Origin: Candidatus Taenariivivens baikalensis
GTDB taxonomy: Bacteria; Omnitrophota; Omnitrophia; Omnitrophales; Aquincolibacteriaceae
Assembly: GCA_009691445.1 (NCBI GenBank)
Contig: SICL01000002.1
Location: 63 to 64,062, forward strand
DNA length: 64,000 nucleotides
Reading direction: 5' to 3'
Shown here: positions 21,514-64,000 of the stretch, one piece after another
How the letters are laid out: each line of letters starts with the position of its first letter
Numbering within the stretch: position 1 is the stretch's first letter
Notes under the pieces: generated by a model
Seen by the model: the letters and a program-made list of their open reading frames with translations, nothing else
Told to the model about the DNA's origin: nothing
The model's database searches: none
Made by a program: the position numbers and the translations under genes

Positions 21514-21514
21514 G

Positions 21515-23504: not shown

Positions 23505-23506
23505 TT

Positions 23507-25812: not shown

Positions 25813-25894
25813 CTGCCATCCAGCAAGAGTTGCATGAAACGGATCTGTCAGCCGGTTCGTAGGACACTTTCCAGAAAGTCGAGAAAATATTCAG

Positions 25895-45352: not shown

Positions 45353-45354
45353 GG

Positions 45355-47126: not shown

Positions 47127-47147
47127 AATTTTAAAAGAGGTTCAGTG

Positions 47148-47966
47148 TTACCAAACCGTTAATCCCCCATCAACAATAAGGTTGTGCCCTGTGACATAAC
47201 TTGAGGCACCGGAAGCAAGATAGATAAGAGCACCCACCATTTCTTGAGGATGAGCCATTCGCCCTAGAGGAACACGGTCGGAATATTTCTTTTGAAACGT
47301 TTTATTTTGCCCGCTAAAGACTCCTCCAGGTGTAAGCGTATTGACGCGAATTTTATGAGGAGCCAAGTGGGTTGACAAATATTTTGTTAGAGCAATCACG
47401 CCGCCCTTTGAGGCAGAGTACACGGCGGGATTGTTAATCTCTTGATTGAGATAAAACGACCCTTGATAGGTTCGCGGATCATGTGACGAAAGGCCATAAA
47501 TGGACGCCGTTTGTATAATTGAGCCGCCTTTTTCTTGCTTTATCATTTGGCTACTGACGGCCTGCGCGACGAGGAACATTGCATCCAGATTGATCGCCAT
47601 AATTTCCCGCCATGTTTCTAGAGAGTAGCGTTCAAATTTCTCAAAAAACGCATGGGCGTCTTTTGATTTTCCGGCGGCATTATTATGGAGGATGTGAACG
47701 GTTTTAAAGGTTTTAAGGATTTGTCGGAGCATTTCGTTTACATTTTGCGGTTGTGTAATGTCGCAGCCCACGCCTAAAGCTTTTATTTTATATTTTTGAT
47801 TCAATTTTTTTGCTAGAGAAACCGCCTCTTTTTCGCGGATATCCACAATCGCCACATGAGATCCGCGGGCAGCCAAGGCTTCACAGAAATGCTTCCCTAA
47901 GATCCCGCAGCCGCCAGTGACAATGGAAGTTTTCCCTTGAAGGCTAAACAGGTCCTTAAAACTCAT
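47148..47966 (-). CDS. Short-chain dehydrogenase/reductase (PtmA-like)
   Basis: The start MSFKDLFSLQGKTSIVTGGCGILG is chosen at 47966. It has the classic SDR TGxxxGxG and YxxxK. Its position matches ptmA of the Campylobacter legionaminic acid locus. Confidence 0.75.
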   Translation of the reverse strand: MSFKDLFSLQGKTSIVTGGCGILGKHFCEALAARGSHVAIVDIREKEAVSLAKKLNQKYKIKALGVGCDITQPQNVNEMLRQILKTFKTVHILHNNAAGKSKDAHAFFEKFERYSLETWREIMAINLDAMFLVAQAVSSQMIKQEKGGSIIQTASIYGLSSHDPRTYQGSFYLNQEINNPAVYSASKGGVIALTKYLSTHLAPHKIRVNTLTPGGVFSGQNKTFQKKYSDRVPLGRMAHPQEMVGALIYLASGASSYVTGHNLIVDGGLTVW

Positions 47967-48690
47967 GGTAATTCCCCTGGTTTTGATGCTGACGATCCAT
48001 GAGAAGTTTGACCACTTCAAAATCCAGATCATGATCAATATCCACGGAACGCTCAGGCGGCATTTCGTAAAGCAATGTGTCGGAATAAAAAATAGCAGGA
48101 TTTTCAATAAAGCGATTCCGTTTCCAGACATAAATTGACGCATTCATGTCGTAACATGCTGGTGAATCTTGCCGGCGGACAACCGGTGTCGGAGTATTTT
48201 TGGAAAGACGGACAAAGCCCTCCGAATTATTTTCTACCAGATTAAAATAGGGCGAATGCCGGGATCGTGCCGCAGTGATGACGTTAGAAACTTTGCGCGA
48301 GTCAAAGAGCCGAACCGCATGATGGATATCCTGAATCGTCCTCAAAGGGGATGTGGCATCCAGATCAACGATCGTTTCGTAAGCATACTTCTTGATTTTT
48401 TCAATTTCAAGTACCGCGTGCCGGATTGCAGGAAGTTTGGATGCCGTATCAGTCGCCATTTCTTCGGGACGCTTCAGGAAGTAATCCGCTCCCCATTCGC
48501 GGCTAACCTTGAGAATATCATCTGAATCACTACTGACAACAACGGCATCAAAAAGTTTTGAATCTTTAGCTTGTTGAAGTGTGTGAGCGATCAAGGGTTT
48601 CCCTTGAATCAGCATAATGTTTTTATTTTTGAGGCCTTTGGAACCGCCTCGTGCACAGATCGTGCAAATTCGCTTTATCGGTGTATCCAC
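47956..48690 (-). CDS. CMP-nonulosonate (acylneuraminate/legionaminate) cytidylyltransferase, NeuA/LegF/PtmB family
   Basis: 244 aa. ICARGGSKGLKNKN is the NeuA-family signature. Confidence 0.85.
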   Translation of the reverse strand: MDTPIKRICTICARGGSKGLKNKNIMLIQGKPLIAHTLQQAKDSKLFDAVVVSSDSDDILKVSREWGADYFLKRPEEMATDTASKLPAIRHAVLEIEKIKKYAYETIVDLDATSPLRTIQDIHHAVRLFDSRKVSNVITAARSRHSPYFNLVENNSEGFVRLSKNTPTPVVRRQDSPACYDMNASIYVWKRNRFIENPAIFYSDTLLYEMPPERSVDIDHDLDFEVVKLLMDRQHQNQGNYHEF

Positions 48691-49586
48691 TTGAAGTCCT
48701 TTGCTGCTTCTTCAGCCGCTTCAATCATTTTTACGACATCTATTCCCTCTTCAAAAGAGCATAGCGATTCTGTGTTTCCGGAGAGCACGGCTTCGTGCTG
48801 CCGAAGATAGGTGTGATTTTTATCCATGGGATACTGCTCAATCTGATCATCGGTCTCAAGTGTATTCTGGACTAAATCGGCTTTGAACGTCTGATTGTCT
48901 GTTTGGATGATAATCTCACGCCGGGATTTTCTATCCAGGTAGTTCATTTGTAAAGAGACCAAAGGACATCGCCTTGTTTTTAGCAGGAGAGAATAAGCAT
49001 CGTCACTATCTAGGGTGTTATCGCTGAAGCGCCCTCCGACTGCCGTTAAAGCCTGCCAACCCCCAAGAAGCCAGTTCAAATAGTCCAGTTCATGACTTAA
49101 ATCCCGAAGGACACCCCCGCCGCCTGCTCGGGTTGCGGAGTATCCCAATCGCCCATCAGGCCTCCAGGTGGAAATATGTTTTCCGACGTAGGCTTGAACT
49201 TGAATAATATTTTTAGAGGCGGCAAGGATCATCTTGAGTTTTTGAAGAATGGGATGAAAGCGCAGGTTATAGGCTGTATAAATATAAGTGATCGAATGCT
49301 TTGGGATTGTCACCCTATTGGCAAAAAGGGGCTTTTCGATTAAAACCTTTCCCCTAAAGGACGTATCCGCTAAGGTTTTGAATGAATCAAAATGAGAGCG
49401 GGTATCATTTGCGATCACGACATAATCCGGATTAAAATTCTTGAGACACTCACCGAGCGAAGTAAATAAAGAATCATCATCAGAGTGGTGACGACTGATC
49501 ACTGCGACGTGACAGCCAAGTTCTTTAAGGCAGTTTGCATGACGCACTCCAATGGATCCGTATCCAACCACAGCGGCTTTGATCAT
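48675..49586 (-). CDS. Gfo/Idh/MocA-family NAD(P) oxidoreductase (PtmF-like)
   Basis: 303 aa. N-terminal Rossmann AVVGYGSIGVRH and a Gfo/Idh/MocA C-terminal domain. Confidence 0.75.
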   Translation of the reverse strand: MIKAAVVGYGSIGVRHANCLKELGCHVAVISRHHSDDDSLFTSLGECLKNFNPDYVVIANDTRSHFDSFKTLADTSFRGKVLIEKPLFANRVTIPKHSITYIYTAYNLRFHPILQKLKMILAASKNIIQVQAYVGKHISTWRPDGRLGYSATRAGGGGVLRDLSHELDYLNWLLGGWQALTAVGGRFSDNTLDSDDAYSLLLKTRRCPLVSLQMNYLDRKSRREIIIQTDNQTFKADLVQNTLETDDQIEQYPMDKNHTYLRQHEAVLSGNTESLCSFEEGIDVVKMIEAAEEAAKDFKWIHR

Positions 49587-49589
49587 CGA

Positions 49590-50663
49590 TTAATCTTTGA
49601 CGGAGGGTGCGGGTGCTTTAAAGATTTCCGCAAACTCACCATTCGCACGGACGAGATCCTCAACGCGGCCGACATCAAGCCAATATTCGCGCAGTGGAAA
49701 TGCCGCTGTTTCTTTTTTGTTTTGGATTAAGATTTCAAACAAATTTGGCATATCGAAATACTCGTTTTGAGGAATCAAAGAAATAGCGTCTGGTTCAAAG
49801 GCGTAAATTCCGGCATTGACAAAAAATTTGTGAATAGGTTTTTCGTCGATAGCTTGAATCCGTTGACGGTCGAGCTGAACGACTCCAAAGGGAACCTGGA
49901 AGTCATATTCCCGGACGCACATGGTGCCGAGGGCTTCATGTTCCCTGTGGAATTGGAGAAGCTGCCGAAAATTAATTTTTGTCAACAAATCACCATTCAT
50001 GACAATAAAGGTTTGTTTCGGGGTTTCAGGAAGCAGCGCAAGAGCACCGGCAGTTCCCCGGCGTTCATGTTCATGGAGATAAGTGATATCGGCTCCCCAC
50101 TTGCTACCATTTCCAAAATAATGACGAACCATTTCATCCTTATAATGAACTGAAATAAAAAAACGATGAAACCCCTGTTCAATAAAATTTTGCAGAATGG
50201 TTTCTAAAATAGGCTTGTTTCCCACCGACAAAAGGGGTTTTGGGCAATCATCGGTGAGAGGCCGCAGGCGAGTTCCAAGTCCCCCCGCCATTAAAATGAT
50301 CCAATTGTGGACGGGATCGACTTTTAATAATTCATCAATGATTTTCACATCAATAATCTGGCCTTCAGAGTTAAGAATTGGAAGTTGATGAATTTCACGC
50401 TTTTGCATTGTTTCCCGCGCTAAAATTGGATCATCGCTCATCGCAAGAACGGCCGGGTTATGTCGCATAATTGACTCAACGGGTGCGGAAAGAGGAACTC
50501 CCTTAAGCATGCCCCGGCGAACATCCCCATCCGTGACCGTGCCGCAGAGTTTATTCATGGCATCCACGACAAAAGCGATCTGAATGGAGCCGGCGTCAAT
50601 TTTAGCGATAGCATCGGCAATGGATGCCCCGCTAGCAACAAGTGCTTTCTTCCAGTCCGGCAT
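49590..50663 (-). CDS. CBS-domain plus nucleotidyltransferase fusion (PtmE-like sugar-1-phosphate guanylyl/nucleotidyltransferase)
   Basis: The start MPDWKKAL is chosen at 50663. It has an N-terminal CBS pair, then ILMAGGLGTRLRPLTDDCPKPLL NTP-transferase motifs. The architecture matches PtmE of the GDP-GlcNAc-based legionaminic acid pathway. Confidence 0.75.
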   Translation of the reverse strand: MPDWKKALVASGASIADAIAKIDAGSIQIAFVVDAMNKLCGTVTDGDVRRGMLKGVPLSAPVESIMRHNPAVLAMSDDPILARETMQKREIHQLPILNSEGQIIDVKIIDELLKVDPVHNWIILMAGGLGTRLRPLTDDCPKPLLSVGNKPILETILQNFIEQGFHRFFISVHYKDEMVRHYFGNGSKWGADITYLHEHERRGTAGALALLPETPKQTFIVMNGDLLTKINFRQLLQFHREHEALGTMCVREYDFQVPFGVVQLDRQRIQAIDEKPIHKFFVNAGIYAFEPDAISLIPQNEYFDMPNLFEILIQNKKETAAFPLREYWLDVGRVEDLVRANGEFAEIFKAPAPSVKD

Positions 50664-51292
50664 TAAGCAGTCCTCTTCATTAAATTTTGTGATGCTGATG
50701 AAGCAATGTTGCGAAGGATCGTTGAACCTGCTTTGATAAGGGTGTTGGGGCCGATGTGCCTTTCCTGAATGATCACAGAACCGCTTCCGATGAGCGAGTT
50801 TTCCCCAACAATGACTCCACCGCATAAAGTAACCCCAGGTGCAATATGAACATGAGGCCCAATCTTGCAATCATGATCGATCGAGGATCGGGTATTAATA
50901 ATGGAATTTTCCCGAATAATGGTTCCAGGCTGAACAACGGTTCCGGCCATGATCTGTACCCCCTCACCTATTTGGACATCCGAAGCAATCACGGAAGAAG
51001 GATGGACAACGGAAGCAAAGTTATAACCCAAGGATTTAAAATAAGTAAAAATTCTTTTGCGATGGTCGCTGACCCTAATGGTGCCAAGCCCATTGACTAA
51101 ACGAATTTTTGAATTTGTAAATTCAAGAACGGCGTTATCATCACCCAGGACACTTAATCCTGAAATTTTTTCACCGGCTTTATGTGAAGGGTCAGTGATC
51201 CCAATTATTCTTTCTTTGCGTAGTTTTAACGTCTCAATCAAGACCCTCGCATGCCCCCCACCCCCAAGAATGATAATCGGTGGTTGTTTCAT
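50663..51292 (-). CDS. PglD/NeuD-family hexapeptide-repeat sugar N-acetyltransferase (LegH-like)
   Basis: The start MKQPPIIILGGGGHARVLIE is chosen at 51292. It has an N-terminal Rossmann-like segment plus a left-handed beta-helix (IGEGVQIMAGTVV...GENSLIGSGSVI). Confidence 0.8.
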   Translation of the reverse strand: MKQPPIIILGGGGHARVLIETLKLRKERIIGITDPSHKAGEKISGLSVLGDDNAVLEFTNSKIRLVNGLGTIRVSDHRKRIFTYFKSLGYNFASVVHPSSVIASDVQIGEGVQIMAGTVVQPGTIIRENSIINTRSSIDHDCKIGPHVHIAPGVTLCGGVIVGENSLIGSGSVIIQERHIGPNTLIKAGSTILRNIASSASQNLMKRTA

Positions 51293-52362
51293 AAAGTCAC
51301 CAAGTCGTCTTTGCAAAAGTTTTTGAGAGAAGGACGTCCCAGGAGTTCCCAATATTTATAGGGACTGAGACCCAAGCCGGGTCTTTTGATCGCAAGATTA
51401 GATGATGAAAACAAATCCCCTTTTTTAATCGAGGAGGATGCCACAATGCTTTTTCGGATGGCCGATATGTTTTTAGTTTCACACAAAGAGGGTTTTTTTT
51501 GACCGTCGCCTAGGGCGTATTCAACAGCGCGTATTCCATCGATCATTTGTTTGAGTTCATTAGGTTCAAGAGAAGCAAAGTGATCCGGTCCGGAAAGTCT
51601 TCGATCCAGTGTAAAGTGTTTCTCAATAATGGTTGTTCCCAGAGCGGCTGCGGCGATGGGCACTGCACCTCCCAAGGAATGATCGGACAGTCCGGTGGAA
51701 AGGCTAAAGATTTTTTGCAAAGTCATCATGGCACGTAAATTAATGGCGTGATAAGGAGCTGGATACTCCGTGGTGCATTGAAGCAAAGTCACTTTTTCTT
51801 TCAGAAGCCCCTTTCCTTCCCGAGAATCGTAATAAGATTTAAACTTTCGTTCTGATGGGTCTTCCTTGGCTGAAGAAAGAAATCCAAAGGCTAGCACCGA
51901 GAGTGCTTTTTTAATTTCCTGAAGGGTTGACATTCCCGTTGATAAAATAATAGGCAACTTTTTTCGGGCGACGTGAAGTAAGAACGGAGCGTTTGTAATT
52001 TCTCCTGATGAGATTTTAAAACGCTTAACCCCAAGTTCATATAAAAAGTCTGCACTGGCCTCATCAAAAGGCGTTGAGAGAAATTCGATTTTTTGCTTTG
52101 TGCATTCCCGGAATAAAGCTTGATGACTTCGATCCGTTAACTCCAGGCGCTTAATCATATTCCATTGCGATGAACCCCTAGTCTGTTTCATTTGGTACGA
52201 TGCTTTGGGGGTTGTTTTGGTCAGAAGCGTCTCAGCTCGGAAAGTTTGAAACTTGACCGCGTCTGCGCCCGATGATTTTGCGCAACGCACCATTTCAAGG
52301 GCTCTTTCCACATTCCCATTATGATTGACGCCGGCCTCGGCAATAACATATACGTGTTTCAT
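51289..52362 (-). CDS. Nonulosonic acid synthase (NeuB/LegI/PseI family) with C-terminal SAF domain
   Basis: 357 aa. Starts MKHVYVIAEAGVNHNGNVERALEMV, has the SGADAVKFQTF motif, and ends in an antifreeze-like domain. Confidence 0.9.
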   Translation of the reverse strand: MKHVYVIAEAGVNHNGNVERALEMVRCAKSSGADAVKFQTFRAETLLTKTTPKASYQMKQTRGSSQWNMIKRLELTDRSHQALFRECTKQKIEFLSTPFDEASADFLYELGVKRFKISSGEITNAPFLLHVARKKLPIILSTGMSTLQEIKKALSVLAFGFLSSAKEDPSERKFKSYYDSREGKGLLKEKVTLLQCTTEYPAPYHAINLRAMMTLQKIFSLSTGLSDHSLGGAVPIAAAALGTTIIEKHFTLDRRLSGPDHFASLEPNELKQMIDGIRAVEYALGDGQKKPSLCETKNISAIRKSIVASSSIKKGDLFSSSNLAIKRPGLGLSPYKYWELLGRPSLKNFCKDDLVTL

Positions 52363-53027
52363 CGGGTCTCACGAAGAATCATAAACGCTTCAGCTGCTTT
52401 AACACCGCATTCGGATCCTCGAAGCAGCGCGAGCGCTTTCATTGTATCGGCAGAACGAGGAAACGGATGTTTTCCCCATTCACTTTGATACGTTTTCATG
52501 GCGTTTATTTTTTTTTGCAGGAACGAGGTGATATTGATATATAAATTAGGAACAAATGATTTTTGAGTCGGATCAAGCTTGAAACCTGTTTCAGAAAGGG
52601 TTTCATAGGTATAGATGTTTTTAACCGAAGGAGCACGAAACCATTTTGCTGCAGTCAGCACCGCGTCAAATGCAGCCCGGTGATCACTATGAGCGTCTCC
52701 CGGGAAAGGAACAAATAAGGTATCCGGTTTGATTTCATTGATAACTTTTTTGATTTTAAAGATCAAATCTGATTTTGGAATCTGATCGAGGGAACAAGGA
52801 GAGAATCCGAGATCCCAGGATGAATTAAATCGATAGAATTTTTCGATGGCTTTAATTTCTTTCTCCCGTCGTGAGATTGAAGAAACGGAATAGCCTGAAC
52901 GCGGACTCATTTGTGTAACGCGAATCCAATGGATTCTTTTTCCTTCTGCCCGAAGCCGAAAAAGAGTTCCTCCGCAGCCAAGAGTTTCATCATCGGGATG
53001 AGGAGCGATAACTACAATATTTTTCAT
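52359..53027 (-). CDS. PIG-L/LmbE-family N-deacetylase
   Basis: The start MKNIVVIAPHPDDETLGCGGT is chosen at 53027. AHPDDE is the family zinc-binding signature. Confidence 0.8.
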   Translation of the reverse strand: MKNIVVIAPHPDDETLGCGGTLFRLRAEGKRIHWIRVTQMSPRSGYSVSSISRREKEIKAIEKFYRFNSSWDLGFSPCSLDQIPKSDLIFKIKKVINEIKPDTLFVPFPGDAHSDHRAAFDAVLTAAKWFRAPSVKNIYTYETLSETGFKLDPTQKSFVPNLYINITSFLQKKINAMKTYQSEWGKHPFPRSADTMKALALLRGSECGVKAAEAFMILRETR

Positions 53028-53923
53028 AGATACTCTCCCGCTTTCGGGCATTGAGGAATGTCGTGGCTGAGGATTTGCAGAGCGGATGCGCCGCCGCATT
53101 TTATGGTGAAATGCTTTTTGGAAGCATTAAGAATTTTACCGGGCTCGCAATTATCCTTTAAATTTGTAACTACTTGAGATCTCCAGACAGCAAATTTCTT
53201 TCCGTTGTATCGGCACACAGCTCCAGGATAAGGTTTGGCCAGTGCTCGGATGAGATTGTAAATCGTTTCGGCGGACATTCTCCAATCAATTGCACCGTCC
53301 CCTTCCGATCGTTTTCTCCAAGTATTTCCGTGATCAGCAGGTTGTTTCCCACGTTTAAATTCCCCAGAAGCGAGTGCTAAGCTAAAAGTGGGTATTTGCT
53401 GTTTTGCAATTTTAAGGAGACGCTGATAGAGATCATGCGCATAATCGGTCTTTGAGATTTTTACATTTTTTTGGTCAAGAATATCCCCTGTGTCCGCTTT
53501 CTCATCCATGAAAAAGAAAGTCGATGCGGTTTGTTTTAAGCCGAGGGCTAAAGCCCAGATAATCGGATGCCGTCCTCGATTATAGGGTAGTTTGGCAGGA
53601 TGGTATCCAATGACCCCCAGGCGCGGAATTTCCAAAATTGTTTTTTGCAGCAACCACGACCATCCGAAACAATAAATCACATCAGGGCATATTTCATGAA
53701 GCCATTTCACAAGATTTTCTTCGTTGTGCTGGTCTGCAAGGAAATAAGGGATTTTATGGCGGGCTGCAACGGGCTGAAGTGAAGTGAAATCGCTGTTAAA
53801 ACTGGATGCTTTACGTGTGACAACTCCGGCCACATGATAATGCTTATTTTTTTGCTTCAGAAGATCTCGGAGGCATGACTCGCTGAATTGGACACAACCC
53901 ATAAAAACTATCTTCATCGGCAA
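53024..53923 (-). CDS. Formyltransferase (Fmt/ArnA-N-like, N10-formyl-THF-dependent sugar N-formyltransferase candidate)
   Basis: 299 aa. The formyl_trans_N fold with GVIGYHPAKLPYNRGRHP (HxSLLPxxRG-like catalytic region). Confidence 0.75.
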   Translation of the reverse strand: MPMKIVFMGCVQFSESCLRDLLKQKNKHYHVAGVVTRKASSFNSDFTSLQPVAARHKIPYFLADQHNEENLVKWLHEICPDVIYCFGWSWLLQKTILEIPRLGVIGYHPAKLPYNRGRHPIIWALALGLKQTASTFFFMDEKADTGDILDQKNVKISKTDYAHDLYQRLLKIAKQQIPTFSLALASGEFKRGKQPADHGNTWRKRSEGDGAIDWRMSAETIYNLIRALAKPYPGAVCRYNGKKFAVWRSQVVTNLKDNCEPGKILNASKKHFTIKCGGASALQILSHDIPQCPKAGEYL

Positions 53924-55077
53924 CCTGCCGGAACGTAAAATTTTTTCTTGAGCAAATCCGCACCAAGAGGAAAATATTTTATTTCCTTTTTAATCATCAT
54001 GGATGCCCGGCCCTTGCCGTAAAGGAAATCGGGTTTTACTTTTTTTGATCGTATTAAACCCGATTGAATCGATTGTTTAATTTTTCCTGAATTTTCAGGG
54101 CAATCGATGACCGTTTTAGCGCGCAATCTTCCTTTTTGCCGGTCACCGATATTGATAGAGATTTTCCCCATAAAAGGCGCTTCAATAATTCCGCTGGATG
54201 AATTTCCAACCAGAAGAGTGGCGTGGTGCATCAGGCTTAAGTAGATTTCTTGACCAAGCGACGTGAAAGCAAAAGTACGAGATTTTTTTTCCACATACTC
54301 ATCTATCAATTGATTAATCGAAAGGCCCAGGGGGTCTGTATTGCTTTTAGTAATAATAATGGTCCCTCGCCGAAAATGATTTAGGGCTTTAAAGAGTTCC
54401 TGGGCGGAACGTAACGACTTCTTCCCTTCCAAAGTGACGGGATGATAAGTGACGAGAAAAAGAGGGCTGTGGATTTTTATTTTCAGACAACTTTCAAGTT
54501 CCTGGAGAGTAAGCGCTTTCGTCTTCTTGATGTGGTCAAGTCCCGGAGCCCCATAATTAAATACCCGGTTGGGTTCCTCACCCATTTGGATGATGTGTTT
54601 TCGATAAGTTTCCGAGGCGGCAAAATGAAGATGAGCCATTTTTGTGATCGAATGGCGAATGGCTTCATCGATAAGCCCCTCGGTGGATTCTCCCCCGTGA
54701 ATATGGGCGATGGGGATACGGGCAATCATTGCCGCTTGAGCCGCTGCAAATATTTCATAGCGGTCCCCTAAAATAACGAGCAGATCCGGATTTAATTTTT
54801 TGAGTCCTTTCGCGAAGGAATCCACTCCAATGCCCAGGGATTTACTGACAGCTTCAGGGGAATCGGTTGCTAAGGGCATCCTGGCCTTGTAGGCGATTGA
54901 AAAGCCATCTTTTTCAATCTTTTCAACCGTGCGACCAAATTGTTTTAAGAGATGCGCGGCACCCGCGATCACCTGGAGTTTCAAAGAAGAGTCATTCTGG
55001 ATTTCTTTCATAATCCAATAGAGATGTCCATAATCAGCGCGTGATCCCGTGACGACGCAAATCTTTCTCTTTTTCAT
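53914..55077 (-). CDS. UDP/GDP-N-acetylglucosamine 2-epimerase, hydrolysing (NeuC/LegG family)
   Basis: 387 aa. Starts ICVVTGSRADYGHL, has HIHGGE, and matches NeuC throughout. Confidence 0.85.
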   Translation of the reverse strand: MKKRKICVVTGSRADYGHLYWIMKEIQNDSSLKLQVIAGAAHLLKQFGRTVEKIEKDGFSIAYKARMPLATDSPEAVSKSLGIGVDSFAKGLKKLNPDLLVILGDRYEIFAAAQAAMIARIPIAHIHGGESTEGLIDEAIRHSITKMAHLHFAASETYRKHIIQMGEEPNRVFNYGAPGLDHIKKTKALTLQELESCLKIKIHSPLFLVTYHPVTLEGKKSLRSAQELFKALNHFRRGTIIITKSNTDPLGLSINQLIDEYVEKKSRTFAFTSLGQEIYLSLMHHATLLVGNSSSGIIEAPFMGKISINIGDRQKGRLRAKTVIDCPENSGKIKQSIQSGLIRSKKVKPDFLYGKGRASMMIKKEIKYFPLGADLLKKKFYVPAGCR

Positions 55078-56249
55078 AGAAGAACACCGCTTGGGATATT
55101 AATAAGACGTGTTTCAATATCTTCGGCTGTCGATAAATCCATTCTCGGACATTCCGAGTACATGGGAAGGCGGTGCATGAGTGTCCAGCACGGACGTGTA
55201 CTCATTCCATTTTGATTTGTGATTTCAAGCAGCGGATTGCGCATTGACGCTTGATCGGCATCAAGAAGAAGTGCATTGAGCCAGTAATTGCTTTGAGATT
55301 CCTTAGGTTCGGTAAAAAAATGGATTCCGGATAAGCCTTCAAAAGCTTTTTGATAGCGTCCTGCAAGCTCTCGTTTATTTTTTAGAAAAAGAGGTATTTG
55401 TTCGAGCTGGGCACAACCAAGGGCTGCATTGATATTAGGAAGGCGGTAATTAAAACCTATTTCATCATGGGCGAAAAAATAGCCGTGAGGAATCCGAGCC
55501 GTTGTGGTGATATGTTTCAATTTTTGTGCGAGTTTTTCATTGTTTGTCAGAATGGCCCCGCCGCCTCCGGTGGTGATGATTTTGTTTCCATTAAAACTTA
55601 AAATCGTCAGATCGCCCCAGCTTCCGGTGTGCTTTCCCTGGTAATAAGAGCCAAGGGATTCTGCGGCATCTTCGATAAAAATAAGATTGTATTTTTTACA
55701 GAGCGTCTGAATGAGATCCGCCCGAAAGGGATGACCGAAGATATGAACACCGATTAAAGCTTTGATCGGATTTCCAGTCTTACGATTAACAAGCTGGCCA
55801 TTCTTAATCTGAGCAATAGTTTCAAGATACTGATCGAGTTTTTCCGGATCAACACCCAGGGTTTTTTGTTCCGAGTCAATCAAATGAGGAATGGCTCCCA
55901 AATAGCTTACCGCATTCGCTGTGGCGACAAAGGTGAGGGTGGGAATCAAGACTTCGTCGTTTGGAGCAATTCCCGAAATTTTGAGTGCCGCATGGAGTGC
56001 CGCCGTTCCATTAACAACTGCCACGGCCTTTTTTATTCCCGTAAATTGGACAAGATCATTTTCAAACCGATCTACATAAGTTCCAACCGATGAAACCCAC
56101 CCCGTGTCCAAACATTCTTTTACGTAATCCCACTCCTTGCCCGCAAAATGGGGTGCGTGAAGAGGGACGGGTAAAGATGATTCAGGAATACAACTTTTGA
56201 TTTTACGAAAAACCATTTCAAGATCTAATTCGATTTTAAGTTTTGTCAT
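55074..56249 (-). CDS. DegT-family aminotransferase (LegC/PglE-like, NDP-4-keto-6-deoxy-sugar 4-aminotransferase)
   Basis: 391 aa. AVAVVNGTAALHAAL, FNGNKIITTGGGG and DegT fold. Confidence 0.85.
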   Translation of the reverse strand: MTKLKIELDLEMVFRKIKSCIPESSLPVPLHAPHFAGKEWDYVKECLDTGWVSSVGTYVDRFENDLVQFTGIKKAVAVVNGTAALHAALKISGIAPNDEVLIPTLTFVATANAVSYLGAIPHLIDSEQKTLGVDPEKLDQYLETIAQIKNGQLVNRKTGNPIKALIGVHIFGHPFRADLIQTLCKKYNLIFIEDAAESLGSYYQGKHTGSWGDLTILSFNGNKIITTGGGGAILTNNEKLAQKLKHITTTARIPHGYFFAHDEIGFNYRLPNINAALGCAQLEQIPLFLKNKRELAGRYQKAFEGLSGIHFFTEPKESQSNYWLNALLLDADQASMRNPLLEITNQNGMSTRPCWTLMHRLPMYSECPRMDLSTAEDIETRLINIPSGVLL

Positions 56250-56252
56250 GAG

Positions 56253-57263
56253 TTAAAGATTGTAAAGATACGATTTGTATTGAGCTAAATTATTCCGATC
56301 AGAAAACCAATGAATGGTTTCCTGAAGCCCTTGAATTAAACCTTCTTTGCCTTCCGATTGCGGTTTCCACCCGGTCAAACGCTGTACCTTCGTCGCGTCT
56401 GCACAAAGACGTTTCACCTCACTTTTTAAGGGGCGCAAACGTTCGGCATCATTTTCCAGTTCAAGGGGCGTATGCATAAGTTCTGAAATAAGTTGCGCAA
56501 GATCCCCGATAGAAATTTCAAAGCCGGTCCCCAGATTCAAAATTTCACCGGTTGTGGCAGGCGATTCTGCGGCTGCTATAAACCCACGAACGGTATCCAA
56601 GACGAAATTAAAATCACGCGTAGGATGAAGGGCCCCGAGTTTGATTTTCTGTTTCCCATTTGCAAGCTGGGTAATGATCGTGGGGATTACTGCCCTCGCA
56701 GATTGCCGGGGGCCATAGGTATTGAAGGGTCTTACGATGGTGACAGGTAGATCAAAGGATTCATGAAATGACATGGCAATCTGATCTGCGCCTATTTTTG
56801 TGGCGGCATACGGTGATTGTCCATGCAAAGGATGTTTTTCCGTGATGGGAACCGTTTGCGCGCTTCCGTAAACCTCGCTTGTTGAGGTGTGGATGAATTT
56901 TTTAATACCCATGTCTCGCGCAGCCTGCAGTAAGTTGAGTGTTCCCTTGATGTTGGTGTCCACATAGGCATCGGGAGAATGATAGGAAAATGGAATTCCG
57001 ATAAGGGCGGCTAAATGGAAGATATAGTCACAGCCGTGAAGCGCTGTCCTTACTCCGTGAGGATCTCGAATGTCCCCCATAAAGATTTCGATTTTGTCTT
57101 GAATTTCCGGCTCTAAATGGTCTAACCAGCCCCAACTATTGAACGAGTTATAAAAAACGAAGGCACGGATATCACATCCGGAACGGACTAATGCTTCTGT
57201 TAAATGGGACCCGATAAAGCCGTCCGCACCGGTCACCAGTATTTTTGAATTTTTGAGATTCAA
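56253..57263 (-). CDS. NAD-dependent NDP-sugar 4,6-dehydratase/epimerase (LegB-like extended SDR)
   Basis: 336 aa. VTGADGFIGSHL, YAATK, and dTDP-glucose-4,6-dehydratase-like layout. It is the first biosynthetic step gene, adjacent to the aminotransferase. Confidence 0.75.
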   Translation of the reverse strand: MNLKNSKILVTGADGFIGSHLTEALVRSGCDIRAFVFYNSFNSWGWLDHLEPEIQDKIEIFMGDIRDPHGVRTALHGCDYIFHLAALIGIPFSYHSPDAYVDTNIKGTLNLLQAARDMGIKKFIHTSTSEVYGSAQTVPITEKHPLHGQSPYAATKIGADQIAMSFHESFDLPVTIVRPFNTYGPRQSARAVIPTIITQLANGKQKIKLGALHPTRDFNFVLDTVRGFIAAAESPATTGEILNLGTGFEISIGDLAQLISELMHTPLELENDAERLRPLKSEVKRLCADATKVQRLTGWKPQSEGKEGLIQGLQETIHWFSDRNNLAQYKSYLYNL

Positions 57264-57278
57264 GAAACCCTCCCGGAC

Positions 57279-57512
57279 TTAATCTTCGTCATGGATCCAT
57301 CGCCGGGCTTTGTTGTAAGCAATCCCGACTTTATTTTCCAATTTGGGTGAAAGGATACGTAAAAGTTCTTTTCCCATAATGCGGTATTGTTTTCCCACTT
57401 TAGCGGAGCGAATCAGGCCTTTTTTAATCATGCGCGCAAGTGTGCTGGTACTGACTTTGAGGATTTCTTCAGTTTCGGCTAAGGTATATACTTCGTTTTC
57501 TCTAATTTCCAT
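57279..57512 (-). CDS. Helix-turn-helix DNA-binding protein, excisionase/MerR-like (HTH_17) family
   Basis: The start MEIRENEVYTLAETEEILKVSTSTLARMIKKGLIRSAKVGKQYRI is about 77 aa. This is a classic excisionase-family HTH. Confidence 0.7.
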   Translation of the reverse strand: MEIRENEVYTLAETEEILKVSTSTLARMIKKGLIRSAKVGKQYRIMGKELLRILSPKLENKVGIAYNKARRWIHDED

Positions 57513-57617
57513 AGGTGCTCCATGTGGTAAGGTGCCACATAGTACCATTAGCCCTATTTAAGTGTCAATACCTGTCAAAATATAACATCAAGAGAGAGCA
57601 GGTAAATAGCCGTCCCA

Positions 57618-59756
57618 TTAATTCGAAAGGGTGTAGCGGACAAAGTCGTCGTGGGAGGCGTCTTTGGAGTCGGTGAAGTTGGACTCAGTGGAAATGATCT
57701 TCCGGAACAGGCTTTCAACATTGCTCACTCGAGTCACAATCTTACTCAATGCATTGGCATGAATTCCGTAGCGCAAGAATTGATCGCGGCGAACCGCTAG
57801 TTGGTCCTCCGTAAAAAGAAAGTCATAGCGGATCGTATGATCGCGCATAAACCGCGAAAGCGGGGTTCCCTCCGGGCTTTTCATCCAGCCCACGATATCT
57901 ACATTGCATTCAAGGCTTTTCGGCGTCAAATCCCCTTCATGATTAAGAACGCCTTTTAGTTTCATTTTGACAAACTGATTGAGAAGGTTGATCTCTTCTT
58001 CCGTTTCCTTCCATTTTTCCCGGGAAAGTTTTTCATGTGCGATCTGAATACAGATTTGCATGAGGTAATCCGCCCAGGCGTCGGCAGCAAAAGCAAGACT
58101 CATGGCCTTGTATTTATAAATAACATTGCCGCCAATTTCCCCATGATACAGCGCTTTGTAGTTAGCATCCTTTTCGTAGAAATGCAGCATTTCCTCGGCG
58201 GAGTTCCAAAGCTCTCCTTTGGTCTCAGTAATAAAACCTTCAAAAATTTTCTTTACGTCTCCTGGAGCTGAGTCCATCGCGCCGTAAACACGTAGGATAA
58301 AATCAAAAAGTTTGATATCAAACGACGCCGCATAACGAAAAAATTCATTAAAAGGACGGCTATTGTGCAGCACTTCCACCATCATGGCGAGCCCTCGGAT
58401 CCAGAGGTAGTCCTCAAAGGACATGTCTTTATTGGCGATTCCCACTTCTTCATAATCAAAAATTCTTTTGCCACCATACTCGCCAAAGTTGAGGGGAACA
58501 ATGCGGTACTTGCCCTTGATTTGAAATTCATTTCTGTACTCAGGCTCCTGAAAAGGGGTTCCGTGCAGAAGCATTAAGGAGTATGTACAGACCATGCTGA
58601 CTCCCGCTTCAAGGATATTTTGAACACCGCGTGTAAAAGTCTCCTTCGTTTCTCCCGGCAATCCCACGATTAGTTCGCCCTTGGTTGATCGCCCGCGTTC
58701 CGTCAGGGTTTTATTCACCGCCACATAGTGATCGAGTTTGATATTGGCACGCTTGATATTTTCAAGAACTTGCGGATCCATAGACTGGACCGACATGTTG
58801 ACGGAGAAAGTATTTCCCAGCATTTGAGTGATTTCAATGACATGCTCTTTTTTATTCTTTCCTGTGGTTGCCATGATTTGAAGAGGCCATCCATACTGAG
58901 TCTGAGCGGTTAAAAGTTCCTGGCAAATTTCTTTATCGCGGACATACATGCCAAAATTCGTATCGGCGATGTGGAGGTTTTTAATGCCGTGCTTTTTCAT
59001 GTAAGGCCCGACATAACGGATTTCATCGCGGATTCTTTCAAACGAAAACATGTTGATATGATTGAAGTATTGATTCCCGGTATGGCAGAACGTGCAGGCA
59101 AAAGGACATCCGCGATTGGTTTCCAAAAACGGTGTCAGCCTTCCGTCAAAAAAATGATCCAAAAGCCCAGAAAGGTACGGTGACGGTATATCGTCCAGTG
59201 ACTTCAATCGTTCGGGAGGCATTCCTTTAAGGAGCAGGGGCTCGGAACTGTTACGACTTTCAGGGACAATAAAGACGCAGCCATCGACGGGTTTTTCAAA
59301 TACCTTTTTCCGGTTCCCGCGGCTTTCAAGGATCCTTCCGACTAGGTTAGAAAAAGCAATCTCCCCTTCAAGTTCTACAAAAACATCGGTATTGGGATAC
59401 TGAAGCATGAATCCAAGTTGTAATTCGCTCCGGTGCGGGAAATTAGTCCCTCCCATGGAGGTAATGACATCGGGGTTTGCTTGCTTGGCAATGCCGGCGA
59501 CATGCTCAGAAAGGCGGCTGTTCCAGGAGTAATTACTTAAGGCGATAACATCCGGCGGATTATTTTGAATGGCTTCAATGACTGATGCAGGGTATTTGAA
59601 TAGCGAGACTTCAATATCTTCTCCGTAGATTTTCTTTGCATAAGCCGCAATAAATCCAATATTAATGGGAATGGTATCAGAAACTAAAACAAGCGTGTCG
59701 TGCGTCAGATCACACAGATAGATTTTTAATTTATCCTTTAAAGCCTTTTGTATCAT
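57618..59756 (-). CDS. B12-binding radical SAM enzyme (class B radical SAM, methyltransferase-like) with an ~260-aa C-terminal extension
   Basis: 712 aa. N-terminal cobalamin-binding Rossmann-like domain (DVIALSNYSWNS...). CPFACTFC radical SAM cysteine triad at roughly residues 217-224. Confidence 0.8.
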   Translation of the reverse strand: MIQKALKDKLKIYLCDLTHDTLVLVSDTIPINIGFIAAYAKKIYGEDIEVSLFKYPASVIEAIQNNPPDVIALSNYSWNSRLSEHVAGIAKQANPDVITSMGGTNFPHRSELQLGFMLQYPNTDVFVELEGEIAFSNLVGRILESRGNRKKVFEKPVDGCVFIVPESRNSSEPLLLKGMPPERLKSLDDIPSPYLSGLLDHFFDGRLTPFLETNRGCPFACTFCHTGNQYFNHINMFSFERIRDEIRYVGPYMKKHGIKNLHIADTNFGMYVRDKEICQELLTAQTQYGWPLQIMATTGKNKKEHVIEITQMLGNTFSVNMSVQSMDPQVLENIKRANIKLDHYVAVNKTLTERGRSTKGELIVGLPGETKETFTRGVQNILEAGVSMVCTYSLMLLHGTPFQEPEYRNEFQIKGKYRIVPLNFGEYGGKRIFDYEEVGIANKDMSFEDYLWIRGLAMMVEVLHNSRPFNEFFRYAASFDIKLFDFILRVYGAMDSAPGDVKKIFEGFITETKGELWNSAEEMLHFYEKDANYKALYHGEIGGNVIYKYKAMSLAFAADAWADYLMQICIQIAHEKLSREKWKETEEEINLLNQFVKMKLKGVLNHEGDLTPKSLECNVDIVGWMKSPEGTPLSRFMRDHTIRYDFLFTEDQLAVRRDQFLRYGIHANALSKIVTRVSNVESLFRKIISTESNFTDSKDASHDDFVRYTLSN

Positions 59757-59877
59757 GGGGTTTAGCTGCCTTTTCTCATGCTAAGATTAGGAATTAATTA
59801 AATGTTTGTCAAGACCGATTTGACCGCAGAGTTCGTTATGATCGCAATGTTATCAATGAAGTTCAATATTGCATGGG

Positions 59878-60822
59878 TCATGATTGAGTTTTGAGATACC
59901 AATCAATGGTATTCTTAAGGCCATCCGCGAGTGCTGTTTTTGCTTTGAAGCCAAAAAAATGTTCTGCGCGTGAAATATCAACACATCTCCGCGGCTGCCC
60001 ATTAGGCTTGGAATCGTCCCATTCGATATCGCCTTGAAATCCTGTCATTTTAACAATCATTTCTGTGACTTGACGGATTGAAATTTCCTGGCCGGTTCCC
60101 AGGTTTACGGGTTCTTTTCCGTTATAGTGAAGCAAGCCAAGGACAATTCCTTCAGCCGCATCCTCAGCATAAAAAAATTCACGTGTGGGTGAACCATCGC
60201 CCCAGCAGATAATTTTGTTATCTCCTTGTTTTTTAGCCTGGATGCATTTTCGAATAATTGCAGGAATGACATGCGAAGTATGAGGATCAAAATTATCCCT
60301 AGGTCCATACATATTCACCGGCATCAAATAAATACTGTTCAGACCGTATTGTTCCCGGTAAGTTTGAGCTTGAACGAGTAAAAGTTTTTTGGCAATCCCG
60401 TAGGGGGCATTTGTTTCTTCTGGATAGCCATTCCAGAGATCTTCTTCCTTGAAAGGAACCGGGCAGAATTTCGGATAGGAGCATATGGTTCCAAGGATCA
60501 AGAGTTTTTCTACCGGCACATGGCGGCAGGATTCGATCAGTTGAGATCCCATCATCAGATTTTCATAAAGAAATTTTCCGGGATTGACCTGATTGGCTCC
60601 GATACCTCCGACACTCCCTGCGGCATGAATGATATAGTCAGGACGCTGATCTTTAAGGAGGCGAACAACCGCTTCTTTTTCGATTAGATTGTAGTCTTTG
60701 CTGCGGGGTACAAAGATTTTTTTCGCGCCTTTTTCTCGAAGCTTTTCCACAATAAAGCTTCCCAAAAAACCAGCCCCACCCGTCACTACAATCACTTTAT
60801 CTTTTAAATCTGGGGCACTCAT
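59878..60822 (-). CDS. fcl: GDP-L-fucose synthase-like NDP-4-keto-6-deoxyhexose 3,5-epimerase/4-reductase (Fcl/WcaG family)
   Basis: The start [25 protein letters not shown] is chosen at 60822. It has Fcl-type motifs ([27 protein letters not shown]). Confidence 0.8.
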
Positions 60823-60832
60823 CGGGACATCC

Positions 60833-61792
60833 TTAGCGTGAGCGAAGTTTTTTGACCTGCTCTTCAATCCAGGGATAGGTGATCGCAATGCCGTTCTTAA
60901 GCTTAAATTGCGCCTGCCATCCGGTTCGATAAATTTTTTCATTACTAAAATTGCGGGAAAGAACACCCACGGGACCGTCGACAAATTTTTTCTTTATTTT
61001 TTTCTTGGCTATTTCAGCAACGATGTCGACCAAGTCGCTCACCGTCAGATATTCAGGATTTCCAATATTAGCGGGCCCTTCCACCTGGGATTGCATTAAG
61101 CGATAGATTCCGTCCACCATGTCATCGACGTAGGTGTAGGATCGAACCGCCGTGCCGTCACCCCAAATTTCAATGGCTCCCCCGTTTTCCGCTTCAGCAA
61201 CTTTCCGGCAGATAGCGGCCGGGGCTTTCTCGCGTCCTCCGTGCCAGGTCCCTTCGGGGCCATAACAATTCTGAAAGCGAGCAATCCGGATCACCATACC
61301 GTGCTTCCGTCCAAAAGCCAAAGCCATTCGTTCCGCATAAAGTTTTTCCCAACCGTACTCATTATCTGGAAGTGCGGGATAAGCATCCTCTTCCTTAAGC
61401 TCGGGAGCACCCGGTTTCATGTCGCGGTAGACGCAGGCCGAAGAAGAAAAAAAATAACGTTTAATTTTTTTTTCCGCAGCGCCAGCTGTCATATTGCTAT
61501 TGATCAAAGCATTATGACGCATGATATCGCATTCCGCCGAATGAATGAAACCCATCCCGCCCATATCGGCTGCTAAATTAAAAACTTCGTCAAATCCTTG
61601 AGGATCAGATAAAGCTTTCCGACACTGTTCCATGTCCCGCAAATCAAAGATCTGGAAATCATCGGCTTGGGTGGGAGAATATTCTGGACTTTTGATATCG
61701 ACTCCGCGAACCCAATAGCCTTCACGCTTCAGACGTTTGACCAAGTGATGGGCGATGAATCCCCCGGCACCGGTTACAAGCGCGCGTCTCAT
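60833..61792 (-). CDS. GDP-mannose 3,5-epimerase-like (GME family) extended SDR
   Basis: 319 aa. [19 protein letters not shown] and [28 protein letters not shown] correspond to my recollection of plant GME blocks ([46 protein letters not shown]). It is not Gmd-like. Confidence 0.7.
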
Positions 61793-61891
61793 GTTTCTTT
61801 AGCCTTTTTGATCTTGGTTATCCAAAAAAAAATGCTGAGCACAACATGACTTATCATCGGTCTCTTGGCTGAATTCTAAAGGGAATCCCAT

Positions 61892-62629
61892 TCAAGACAA
61901 AGGGGCGGCTAATTCAGCCTGAGAAGAGGCAAGTTGATGCGGATAGAAATTAGCAAAGCGGACATAATCATTTTTAAGGAAGTTCTTTACATACGAAAAA
62001 TTCAAATCGCGGATATCGGTCCATCGTTCTTTGCGGAACATAGCCGGACTTTTATTCAGGATTTCACAATTTTCTCCAAAATGTTTCACATAGTCGTCTT
62101 TATGCAAAAGAAACTGAGATTTTTTCAGGTAGACGGCATTATGAAACCGGCCGAAGAGCTTTGCGCGTCGATCCACCAGGGCCACATCTTCAAGATCTTT
62201 GAGAATCTTTATTCTACGGAAAACCCCTTCAATGATTTTGCGGAAAGGATAAAGCCAAAAGGGTATGTCTAGTTGAACCGACAGCTCGCTCAGTGTCGTT
62301 TTAGAGTCCGGATTTTCATAATATCGGAGCATTGTTTTTGTTTTAATGACATGGTGAATGCTGGGAAGCCATTCGGGGTGAGGTCTCAAATGGTGGTTAA
62401 TGAATGTCGCCGGGGCGCGGTATTCGCAGATGTAGGTTTGTCCAAATGTAATCCCGAAAACATTCCAGGTTTGATGGCATTTGTAATAACGGAGGCCCTT
62501 TTTAAGGACCTCAATCGATGCGGTCAGAGATTTATGGAGAAAAATATAGTGCTCGGCATCAAGGTAGACTGCTACCGCAATTGCAAGCGGCATGTCCATT
62601 TCATAACAAATCTTAAAATGGTATTTCAT
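61892..62629 (-). CDS. Rieske-oxygenase catalytic (mononuclear non-heme Fe) domain protein, encoded separately from its Rieske domain
   Basis: 245 aa. N-terminal YLDAEHYIFLH matches the DxxHxxxxH 2-His iron motif of Rieske oxygenase alpha-subunit catalytic domains. The start overlaps the Rieske ORF stop by ATGA. Confidence 0.5.
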   Translation of the reverse strand: MKYHFKICYEMDMPLAIAVAVYLDAEHYIFLHKSLTASIEVLKKGLRYYKCHQTWNVFGITFGQTYICEYRAPATFINHHLRPHPEWLPSIHHVIKTKTMLRYYENPDSKTTLSELSVQLDIPFWLYPFRKIIEGVFRRIKILKDLEDVALVDRRAKLFGRFHNAVYLKKSQFLLHKDDYVKHFGENCEILNKSPAMFRKERWTDIRDLNFSYVKNFLKNDYVRFANFYPHQLASSQAELAAPLS

Positions 62630-63069
62630 AGAAACTTAGGCACATCAATGACAAGCTCATTTTGTATAATCTCGCAGGGAAATTCCCGGAATTTATAGTG
62701 GGGAGTTTTGTACTGATCCATTTTTCCTGCGGCGAGAGGCTGTATCCAGATTTTTTCATTGGGGTTTTCAAGAAGTGACAAACTGGTTTTGGAGTATCGA
62801 TAACCATGCCAGGGGCAAACAAGAGCATTCGTTTTTGAACAAAGCCAGCCTTGAGACAAAGGGCCGCCCATATGGGGGCAGACATCATGAAATGCCCGCC
62901 ACGTCTTTCCGTCATGAAGGATAACAACTGTAAGATCAAGGCTAATTTTCTTTGAGTTGACCTGATCTTCCTTGAGTGCACTTAGAGGTACAGCGATACA
63001 ACATTTTTTTTCTTCGGCGAGCTGTTGATACATGGATTTATTGTATCGCAGGCGCCCACGCAGGGTCAA
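62626..63069 (-). CDS. Rieske [2Fe-2S] domain protein
   Basis: CPHMGGPLSQG ... CPWHGYRY (CxH-x16-CxxH). The start may be the internal Met (MYQQLAEEKK) at 63033. Confidence 0.8.
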   Translation of the reverse strand: MTLRGRLRYNKSMYQQLAEEKKCCIAVPLSALKEDQVNSKKISLDLTVVILHDGKTWRAFHDVCPHMGGPLSQGWLCSKTNALVCPWHGYRYSKTSLSLLENPNEKIWIQPLAAGKMDQYKTPHYKFREFPCEIIQNELVIDVPKFL

Positions 63070-63099
63070 TCAGGATGATGGTGTCGGGTGCCTACTCGG

Positions 63100-63220
63100 A
63101 CCACTCGGTACAGTCATTGCGAGTCCCGCGCCTTGGCGGAGACGCGGCAATCCCTGGGCACAACCCGATATTGCTCTCGCTGCGGCTCGCACCAACGGTT
63201 GAGAGTTTTCTCGCAATACC
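63100..63220. repeat. Intergenic palindromic repeat element, copy E (GTCATTGCGAG ... GCGGCAATCCC ... TCTCGCAATACC)
   Basis: Same core motif as copies A-D. It lies in the 197-bp gap between the Rieske gene and the terminal membrane-protein gene. Confidence 0.5.
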
Positions 63221-63266
63221 AAGCGTATGAAGTTTTGGTAGGACCAATGATGTCGGGATGTTGGAG

Positions 63267-64000
63267 TTACTTCAGGCGGTAGACTGTATAAACATATTGA
63301 GATTCCCGGATATTTTGGGAGCGGATCTCGGTTAAGAATTCCGTTTTGGCGCTATTTTTCAACAGGTTGTCAAGAAACGGGTATAAATTGGATCCTCCTT
63401 TGGATGATGCAGGGATGATTTCATTTCGTAAAATATGAGTCACACCCTGTTGCTTGAGCAAAGTAATCAGCGTTGCTTCATTCCAGTCGGGACGATTCCG
63501 GTAGATGCGGTAAAACATCCAGGCATCGATTAAGCGGGGCTTGAAATAGAGATGATGAACTTCATTGGCATTAAAGATGACAGCATGAGCAGGAAGATGC
63601 TGATTGATCCATTCAGCAGCTGGATAGGCTCGGTCATAATGCCGCAAGAACACCTCTCGACTTTCATGCTTGATTAAATAAATGAGTTGGGCTCGGTAGT
63701 GTCGAATACCCAAGGCCAAATAGCCGAAAAGAGCGAGCAGACATACCACGCTGATTGGGTGCAAAATTTTAGAATTAAACCTTTCTCTTAGATCATTGAA
63801 TCCATACACGCAGCTTAAAAGCATTAGGGGGAAAATGGACAAAAGAAACCGAATGTCCTGGGCGGATAAAAACCACAGTGCCGTTACAACGAAGCTGATA
63901 AAAAAATAGGGACGTGCTTTTGGATTTTTGAATGCCCCCCAGGCGGCACAAGGAACAAGTAAGGTATAGAGGGGTCCAATCCAATGGTATTGATTGAATG
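63267..64000 (-). CDS. Polytopic membrane protein with C-terminal soluble domain (GT-C-like candidate), N-terminus beyond window end
   Basis: The ORF-track entry starts at a TTG. Manual translation shows the frame stays open through position 64000 (...FISFVVTALWFLSAQDIRFLLSIFPLMLLSCVYG...), so the gene begins outside the window. It has hydrophobic helices followed by a soluble tail. Confidence 0.5.
   Translation of the reverse strand, partial: FNQYHWIGPLYTLLVPCAAWGAFKNPKARPYFFISFVVTALWFLSAQDIRFLLSIFPLMLLSCVYGFNDLRERFNSKILHPISVVCLLALFGYLALGIRHYRAQLIYLIKHESREVFLRHYDRAYPAAEWINQHLPAHAVIFNANEVHHLYFKPRLIDAWMFYRIYRNRPDWNEATLITLLKQQGVTHILRNEIIPASSKGGSNLYPFLDNLLKNSAKTEFLTEIRSQNIRESQYVYTVYRLK

Follow-up and report, generated by a model that had tools for sequence, protein, structure and literature searches.

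The 64,000-nucleotide stretch of contig SICL01000002.1 analysed here (the window) accounts for half of a 130,395-bp contig of a Candidatus Omnitrophica metagenome-assembled genome, and on its minus strand carries two adjacent genes, one for a homolog of plant-type GDP-mannose 3,5-epimerase (GME, or GM35E) and the other for a homolog of GDP-L-fucose synthase (Fcl, or GMER). A preliminary description had proposed that the pair, possibly with a neighbouring radical SAM enzyme, forms a special route to an unusual L-sugar which is independent of GDP-mannose 4,6-dehydratase (Gmd). We propose instead, with a probability of roughly 55% on the sequence evidence, that these are two ordinary GDP-sugar enzymes acting independently of one another in a very large surface-glycan island, and that the pair would most likely yield GDP-L-galactose/L-gulose and GDP-L-fucose separately. 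The two genes and their junction are as follows.

60833..61792, minus strand: GM35E/GME-type GDP-mannose 3,5-epimerase homolog, 319 aa (PDB match, fingerprint residues).
60820..60838, minus strand: junction of the GME-like stop and the Fcl-like start, TAAGGATGTCCCGATG (read from the sequence).
59878..60822, minus strand: GDP-L-fucose synthase (Fcl/GMER) homolog, 314 aa (PDB match, catalytic residues).

The GME-like product, which NCBI labels merely 'NAD-dependent epimerase/dehydratase family protein' (MSR76837.1), matches the Arabidopsis GME structures (PDB 2c59) at 287 bits (E=1.6e-84) and is 46% identical to Arabidopsis GME (AtGME) across 305 residues. Among other PDB families the next best match, an unrelated short-chain dehydrogenase/reductase (SDR), reaches 95 bits, with 83 for E. 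coli Fcl and ≤73 for GalE, so the protein groups with GME rather than with the UDP-glucose 4-epimerases. No NCBIfam equivalog scores above its own cutoff for this protein (the GalE model reaches 75 where 262 is needed), while Pfam PF01370 identifies an extended SDR at 156 bits and the N-terminal NAD motif GAGGFIA (GxxGxxA) is that of AtGME. Of the two sequence blocks on which the preliminary description had based the likeness to GME, one is indeed identical to Arabidopsis and the other has 1 mismatch (H for K). All eight GM35E fingerprint residues, as listed in PMC8787198, are kept (S143, C145, Y174, K178, N203, K217, R243 and R306 in AtGME), and these are invariant across 81 bacterial relatives. 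The triad S118/Y146/K150 aligns with S143/Y174/K178 of AtGME, C120 and K189 align with its Cys145-Lys217 acid/base couple, and R280, R217 and N175 align with R306 (Cys-acidifying), R243 (diphosphate-binding) and N203, respectively. The lysine of the Cys-Lys couple, which stands in place of the histidine of GMER, marks GM35E (PMC8787198). By family, then, 60833-61792 encodes a genuine enzyme of the GM35E/GME type, and its annotation as such can be made with confidence.

The Fcl-like gene begins 10 nt beyond the end of the GME-like gene, whose stop codon is overlapped by a Shine-Dalgarno-like AAGGA; the ATG at 60822 follows 8 nt further on. Its product is identical to the NCBI entry MSR76836.1, 'GDP-L-fucose synthase', in the 314-aa version. 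A TTG-start open reading frame at 59878-60984 (368 aa) was rejected as the Fcl-like gene, being a mechanical extension into the GME-like gene where the ATG at 60822 is the NCBI start. The protein matches solved GDP-fucose synthases at E=6e-69 (236 bits to PDB 7ll6 and 221 to the E. coli enzyme, 1bsv), which bears out the Fcl-like identity first assigned to it, and is 36% identical to E. coli Fcl. The catalytic set T107, C109, Y136, K140 and H179 is kept (E. coli numbering, confirmed with a probe that matches PDB 1bsv at 100%), H179 being the histidine in 'SNSHVIP'. Both homologies are far beyond chance.

From these families the chemistry can be predicted. The GM35E-type enzyme would use tightly bound NAD+ to oxidise C4 of GDP-mannose, its Cys120/Lys189 pair (C145/K217 in Arabidopsis) would epimerise C5 and C3, and re-reduction of C4 would give GDP-L-galactose and some GDP-L-gulose for glycan assembly. 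The Fcl-like enzyme would carry out Cys/His-mediated 3,5-epimerisation of GDP-4-keto-6-deoxy-D-mannose followed by NADPH-dependent 4-reduction to GDP-L-fucose, its substrate coming from a Gmd encoded outside the 64 kb, where the manB and manC supply genes would likewise lie. On this scheme the two enzymes would not catalyse consecutive steps of one pathway.

A conventional role of the Fcl-like enzyme is supported by the gene order around its relatives. We surveyed 80 metagenomic relatives with 60–66% identity, of which 55 have ≥1.3 kb of upstream sequence and are thus informative. The gmd gene lies immediately upstream on the same strand in 39 of these 55 and somewhere in the locus in 43, and these gmd genes score 474–560 bits against TIGR01472 (cutoff 415). 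Among the 20 most similar relatives, gmd is present in every locus with at least about 0.8 kb of upstream sequence, and is immediately upstream in all but one. The fetched loci of the remaining 12 informative relatives have no gmd, hence a non-adjacent gmd is not unusual. The Fcl-like protein is, by sequence, an ordinary member of this widespread subfamily. Two other members, 62–63% identical to the window protein, directly follow a LegB-like 4,6-dehydratase and not gmd (L096:8883-10921 and L114:8974-10918); these dehydratases score 260–268 bits against TIGR04180, below its cutoff, their surroundings are clusters rich in GT4 glycosyltransferases, and the arrangement may represent a variant 6-deoxy-L-sugar pathway.

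Within the window itself, phmmer identifies only five extended SDRs: the GME-like and Fcl-like proteins, LegB, a CDP-glucose-dehydratase-like protein (20479-21513) and a further SDR (21515-22585). The best score among these against TIGR01472 is 95 bits, and tblastn of the window with the Gmd of E. coli (a probe validated against PDB 1db3) and two environmental Gmds gave LegB as the best match, at 27–28% identity, with no gmd fragment. The window is therefore without Gmd, as had been noted at the outset. A gmd pseudogene or fragment was considered and rejected, since tblastn detected none in the window and the 10-nt gap between the GME-like and Fcl-like genes is too small to hold one. Like gmd, manB and manC were not found in the 64 kb, yet the GME-like enzyme needs GDP-mannose; the genes of GDP-mannose metabolism thus lie elsewhere anyway, and we infer that gmd is also encoded outside the window.

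Several observations weigh against the interpretation of the pair as two ordinary and independent enzymes. There is no gmd in 64 kb that are otherwise full of sugar-nucleotide genes, and the slot immediately upstream of fcl, usually that of gmd, is taken by the GME-like gene at a distance of 10 nt. Lys283, which in E. coli GMER acidifies the catalytic cysteine (PMC8787198), is replaced by arginine in the Fcl-like protein, albeit in common with 83 of 84 members of the subfamily, among them the ones encoded immediately downstream of a true gmd; judged from the alignment, this is a conservative, subfamily-wide change that is not peculiar to this locus. Finally, the protein scores 303.8 bits against the Fcl equivalog model NF047922, for which the cutoff is 500. 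Relatives directly after a true gmd score alike (301 for L082 and 282 for L015), however, and the model is therefore too narrow for this subfamily; the equal scores in gmd-linked relatives rule out the sub-cutoff score as a mark of altered function. Near-invariant positions are kept at 114 of 118 sites in the Fcl-like protein, the four changes being conservative and hydrophobic (L to A, M, V and V), and at 143 of 146 sites in the GME-like protein; nothing in either sequence (4/118 and 3/146 changed) suggests a change of function.

Nor is the GME-Fcl pair a conserved module. No GME-like gene adjoins any of the 80 Fcl relatives, and Fcl is found near only four of 80 GME relatives, three of which also have gmd (L015, L035 and L046) while the fourth, from Rhodoplanes roseus (L078), is accompanied by a convergent fcl of the E. 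coli type. With 39 of 55 relatives linked to gmd, all catalytic residues kept and the adjacency not conserved, the notion of a special gmd-independent pathway is not supported. What does recur is an association of GM35E with gmd, which adjoins the GM35E homolog in 14 of 80 bacterial loci (L010, L012, L015, L019-L021, L025, L029, L033, L035, L039, L040, L046 and L054) and forms GM35E-gmd-fcl trios in L015, L035 and L046. These GM35E-gmd(-fcl) cassettes occur in Gemmatimonadota, Aminicenantes, Nitrospira, Omnitrophota and Hydrogenedentes. Going by gene order, GM35E is linked to the gmd/fcl fucose pathway in general, in what is a recurrent predicted supply cassette for L-galactose and L-fucose. 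GDP-L-galactose is accepted by fucosyltransferases (PMC8787198), and the association fits glycans which use both L-galactose and L-fucose; its frequency suggests that many environmental bacteria build such glycans. In one Omnitrophota locus (L025:10933-13185), the gmd beside GM35E is part of a stop-free frame of 751 codons, in which the match to Gmd falls into two stretches; this could be a fusion or an insertion.

The GME family had been described as rare in bacteria, which turns out to be incorrect. A homolog search returned at least 8000 scored candidates, all with E ≤1e-20, and the best 120 of these are each ≥70% identical to the GME-like protein. In a pattern-limited scan in which each GTDB species was represented by a single genome, at least 559 GME-family loci were confirmed from more than 12 phyla, including Omnitrophota, Gemmatimonadota, Chloroflexota, Acidobacteriota/Aminicenantes, Verrucomicrobiota, Planctomycetota, Myxococcota, Nitrospira, Fibrobacterota, Actinomycetota, cultured Rhodoplanes and others. 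A bacterial GM35E was characterised biochemically in 2019 (PMC6678494). On these homology counts the family is common, not rare, in bacteria, and its abundance across uncultured phyla is useful for the mining of L-sugar enzymes, as has already been anticipated in the GM35E literature.

The first of the alternatives involves a set of legionaminic-acid-type genes that lies directly downstream in the same gene string.

51289..57263, minus strand: legionaminic-acid-type set (NCBIfam scores, including TIGR03568 at 447 and TIGR03569 at 454 bits), made up of the following genes.
56253-57263, minus strand: LegB (TIGR04180 at 514, cutoff 475).
55074-56249, minus strand: LegC (TIGR04181 at 535).
53914-55077, minus strand: NeuC-like protein.
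53024-53923, minus strand: formyltransferase.
52359-53099, minus strand: PIG-L deacetylase.
51289-52362, minus strand: NeuB-like protein.

It is conceivable, if unlikely, that the Fcl-like enzyme uses the product of LegB rather than that of Gmd and would 3,5-epimerise and reduce it to a GDP-linked 6-deoxy-L-N-acetylhexosamine (6-deoxy-L-HexNAc), with the GME-like enzyme separately making GDP-L-galactose. LegB scores above its equivalog cutoff, lies 2.6 kb downstream of fcl on the same strand together with a PtmE-type CBS-nucleotidyltransferase, and is the only 4,6-dehydratase close to the Fcl-like gene in a window without gmd; LegB enzymes act on GDP-GlcNAc (PMC5378307), and the Fcl relatives in L096 and L114 provide examples directly after a LegB-like dehydratase in place of gmd. 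However, the dehydratases of L096 and L114 are far below the LegB cutoff, the nearest Fcl relatives are linked to gmd, and the Fcl-like protein has none of the near-invariant substitutions expected for a switch from a 2-OH manno to a 2-NAc gluco substrate. Moreover the LegB product has a known consumer in LegC (PMC5378307), which is encoded directly after LegB. Recruitment of the Fcl-like enzyme into the legionaminic-acid branch that builds on GDP-GlcNAc, so as to convert GDP-4-keto-6-deoxy-GlcNAc into a GDP-activated 6-deoxy-L-HexNAc, seems to us marginally less likely again. Such recruitment would, if true, explain the presence of fcl without gmd in a 64-kb glycan island. To our knowledge, GDP-activated 6-deoxy-L-HexNAc belongs to a class of nucleotide sugars that has not been described.

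We regard it as quite improbable that the genome truly lacks gmd, with the Fcl-like gene surviving as the stranded remnant of a GME-gmd-fcl cassette and having no current substrate. The trios in other phyla (L015, L035 and L046, in that order of genes in L015 and L046) show how deletion of gmd would give the observed arrangement, but the Fcl-like gene is full length with a good ribosome-binding site and start, retains all catalytic residues and the near-invariant positions enumerated above, and is separated from the GME-like gene by a gap of 10 nt which holds no trace of gmd.

Least credible, and in our view very improbable, is the scheme closest to the preliminary proposal, in which the products of the GME-like and Fcl-like genes, perhaps joined by the radical SAM enzyme, would cooperate on GDP-mannose or a GDP-heptose without 6-deoxygenation, a 4-keto intermediate passing to the Fcl-like reductase to give an unusual L-hexose: the genes are tightly coupled (10-nt gap, ribosome-binding site over the stop codon), the window has no gmd and Fcl-like C4-reductases are known which act on O6-keeping 4-keto sugars supplied by an SDR C4-dehydrogenase (PMC10680097), but the pairing is not conserved (0/80 Fcl relatives; 4/80 GME relatives, 3 of them with gmd), the catalytic set of the GME-like protein is complete in itself, hundreds of homologs at about 70% identity to it stand alone, the 4-keto intermediates of GM35E stay bound to the enzyme (PMC8787198), and the relatives of the radical SAM enzyme belong to nonulosonic-acid clusters.

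57618..59756, minus strand: B12-binding radical SAM enzyme, 712 aa, of the KedN5-like methyltransferase class (NF033712, Pfam).

This enzyme (NCBI MSR76835.1) has Pfam B12-binding and Radical_SAM domains and scores 212 bits against NF033712, far below the equivalog cutoff. Its family is widespread, with members of about 710 aa, and includes many full-length relatives at 54–70% identity; those at 62–68% identity lie within nonulosonic-acid clusters in three independent contexts (L163, L164 and L165/L166). Their partners there are NeuB, NeuC-like, PIG-L, CBS-nucleotidyltransferase, DegT aminotransferases, WbuX/HisH/HisF and NeuD-like proteins, and no GME-like or Fcl-like genes occur near the relatives in any of the three contexts. 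Conversely, a survey of 160 loci showed no conserved link between a radical SAM gene and either GME-like or Fcl-like genes. The nonulosonic-acid context thus speaks against the radical SAM enzyme as a partner of the pair, contrary to what had been suggested, and groups it with the adjacent legionaminic-acid genes; it suggests that the family performs a radical modification, perhaps methylation, of a nonulosonic acid or its precursor.

Returning to the interpretation of two independent enzymes, their wider setting is a minus-strand region of 44.5–63.1 kb which forms one tightly packed gene string. From its upstream end this comprises a Rieske protein, a 245-aa protein, the GME-like and Fcl-like genes, the radical SAM gene, an HTH_17 protein and the legionaminic-acid-type set. 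The two genes at its head are as follows.

62626-63069, minus strand: Rieske [2Fe-2S] protein, 147 aa (Pfam Rieske; PDB matches to the SxtT/GxtA and CntA oxygenases).
61892-62629, minus strand: SRPBCC-fold protein of 245 aa, directly upstream of the GME-like gene (AlphaFold2 model).

The Rieske and 245-aa genes overlap by 4 nt. The latter product has no sequence match in Pfam, NCBIfam or PDB, and its AlphaFold2 model (pLDDT 89.7) has a Bet v1/SRPBCC fold whose top structural matches are to PR-10 proteins and cyclases rather than to the alpha subunits of oxygenases. Its family consists of 39 proteins, none of them fused to a Rieske domain, with near-invariant D24, E26, H27 and H32 (a D-x2-H-x4-H pattern) and an invariant D148. 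The arrangement of a Rieske gene followed by an overlapping gene recurs in a distant contig (L168, 5603-6570) but not in another (L167). It is possible that these two genes, which head the operon, encode a Rieske non-haem-iron oxygenase in split form. Neither gene was found beside the surveyed GME or Fcl relatives, and a promoter and terminator scan of 57000-63400 was uninformative, the counts equalling the shuffled expectation.

Between the radical SAM gene and legB lies a small DNA-binding protein of the HTH_17 (excisionase/MerR-like) type (57279-57548, minus strand), with a weak homolog in one Fcl locus (L127). Beyond the NeuB-like gene the string continues with a NeuD-family acetyltransferase, a PtmE-like CBS-nucleotidyltransferase, a GFO oxidoreductase, a CMP-transferase, an SDR and WbuX/HisH/WbuZ. 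Taken together, 44534-57263 (minus strand) encodes LegB, LegC, a hydrolysing 2-epimerase and NeuB along with a formyltransferase, a PIG-L deacetylase, a NeuD-type acetyltransferase, the PtmE-like CBS-nucleotidyltransferase and a WbuX/HisH/WbuZ acetamidino module, and these tailoring genes imply a predicted N-formyl and/or acetamidino derivative of legionaminic acid.

Other parts of the window are also devoted to glycans. A second sugar-nucleotide module on the plus strand (19742-27624) contains a glucose-1-phosphate cytidylyltransferase (401 bits), the CDP-glucose 4,6-dehydratase-like protein (221 bits, below cutoff), an SDR, an FkbM methyltransferase, RfbH (712 bits), a PgfS-like GT2 and a split transketolase pair, and its gene content points to a putative CDP-3,6-dideoxyhexose or branched-sugar pathway. 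On the minus strand at 7500-10032, a gene for a 605-aa carbamoyltransferase is followed by small SxtJ-like (PF19588) and DUF5989 open reading frames, an SxtI/J/K-type trio which adjoins Wzy_C, GT9, GT4 and Bac_transf genes; an O-carbamoylated glycan is the likely product of these genes, to judge from their families. Both ends of the window cut genes on the minus strand, a HAD phosphatase with the GmhB-like motif 'FVDRDGVIN' on the left (2-556) and a membrane protein with a faint DUF6057 match on the right (63270-64000), and the glycan island therefore continues on both sides. To the left of the window start, the 16-kb ENA contig shows just one further short gene.

Beyond annotation the significance of the pair is small, both genes being new members of known families. 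If gmd were truly missing from the genome, the substrate of the Fcl-like enzyme would become an interesting question.

The closest analogue of a cooperative scheme is the GDP-heptose set of Campylobacter jejuni, which consists of the C4-dehydrogenase Cj1427, the epimerase Cj1430 and the Fcl-like C4-reductase Cj1428 (PMC10680097) and in which an Fcl-like SDR likewise takes GDP-4-keto sugars as its substrates; no Gmd-type dehydratase is encoded in that capsule/glycan cluster. However, no cupin epimerase or Cj1427-type enzyme was identified in the window, and the Fcl-like protein scores 144–178 bits against reductases of the C. jejuni type (PDB 7anh, 7m13 and 7cxt) compared to 221–236 against true Fcl. 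With E. coli Fcl (PDB 1BSV; NF047922) it shares the length class, S/T107, C109, Y136, K140 and H179, at 221 bits, and differs in its 36% identity, its score below the NF047922 cutoff and the arginine at position 283. In contrast to usual Fcl loci, it is preceded by a GM35E gene and not by gmd. The GME-like protein and AtGME (PDB 2C59/2C54) have in common the extended-SDR fold, the GxxGxxA NAD motif, the catalytic triad, the Cys-Lys pair and the equivalents of R306, R243 and N203, whereas the plant N- and C-terminal extensions of about 30 residues are absent from the bacterial protein. Compared to AtGME and the GM35E of Methylacidiphilum fumariolicum SolV (MfGM35E, UniProt I0K0X9), the gene described here is distinguished by its location within a glycan island, with fcl and legionaminic-acid genes alongside, while its 46% identity to AtGME resembles the approximately 50% between AtGME and MfGM35E (PMC6678494).

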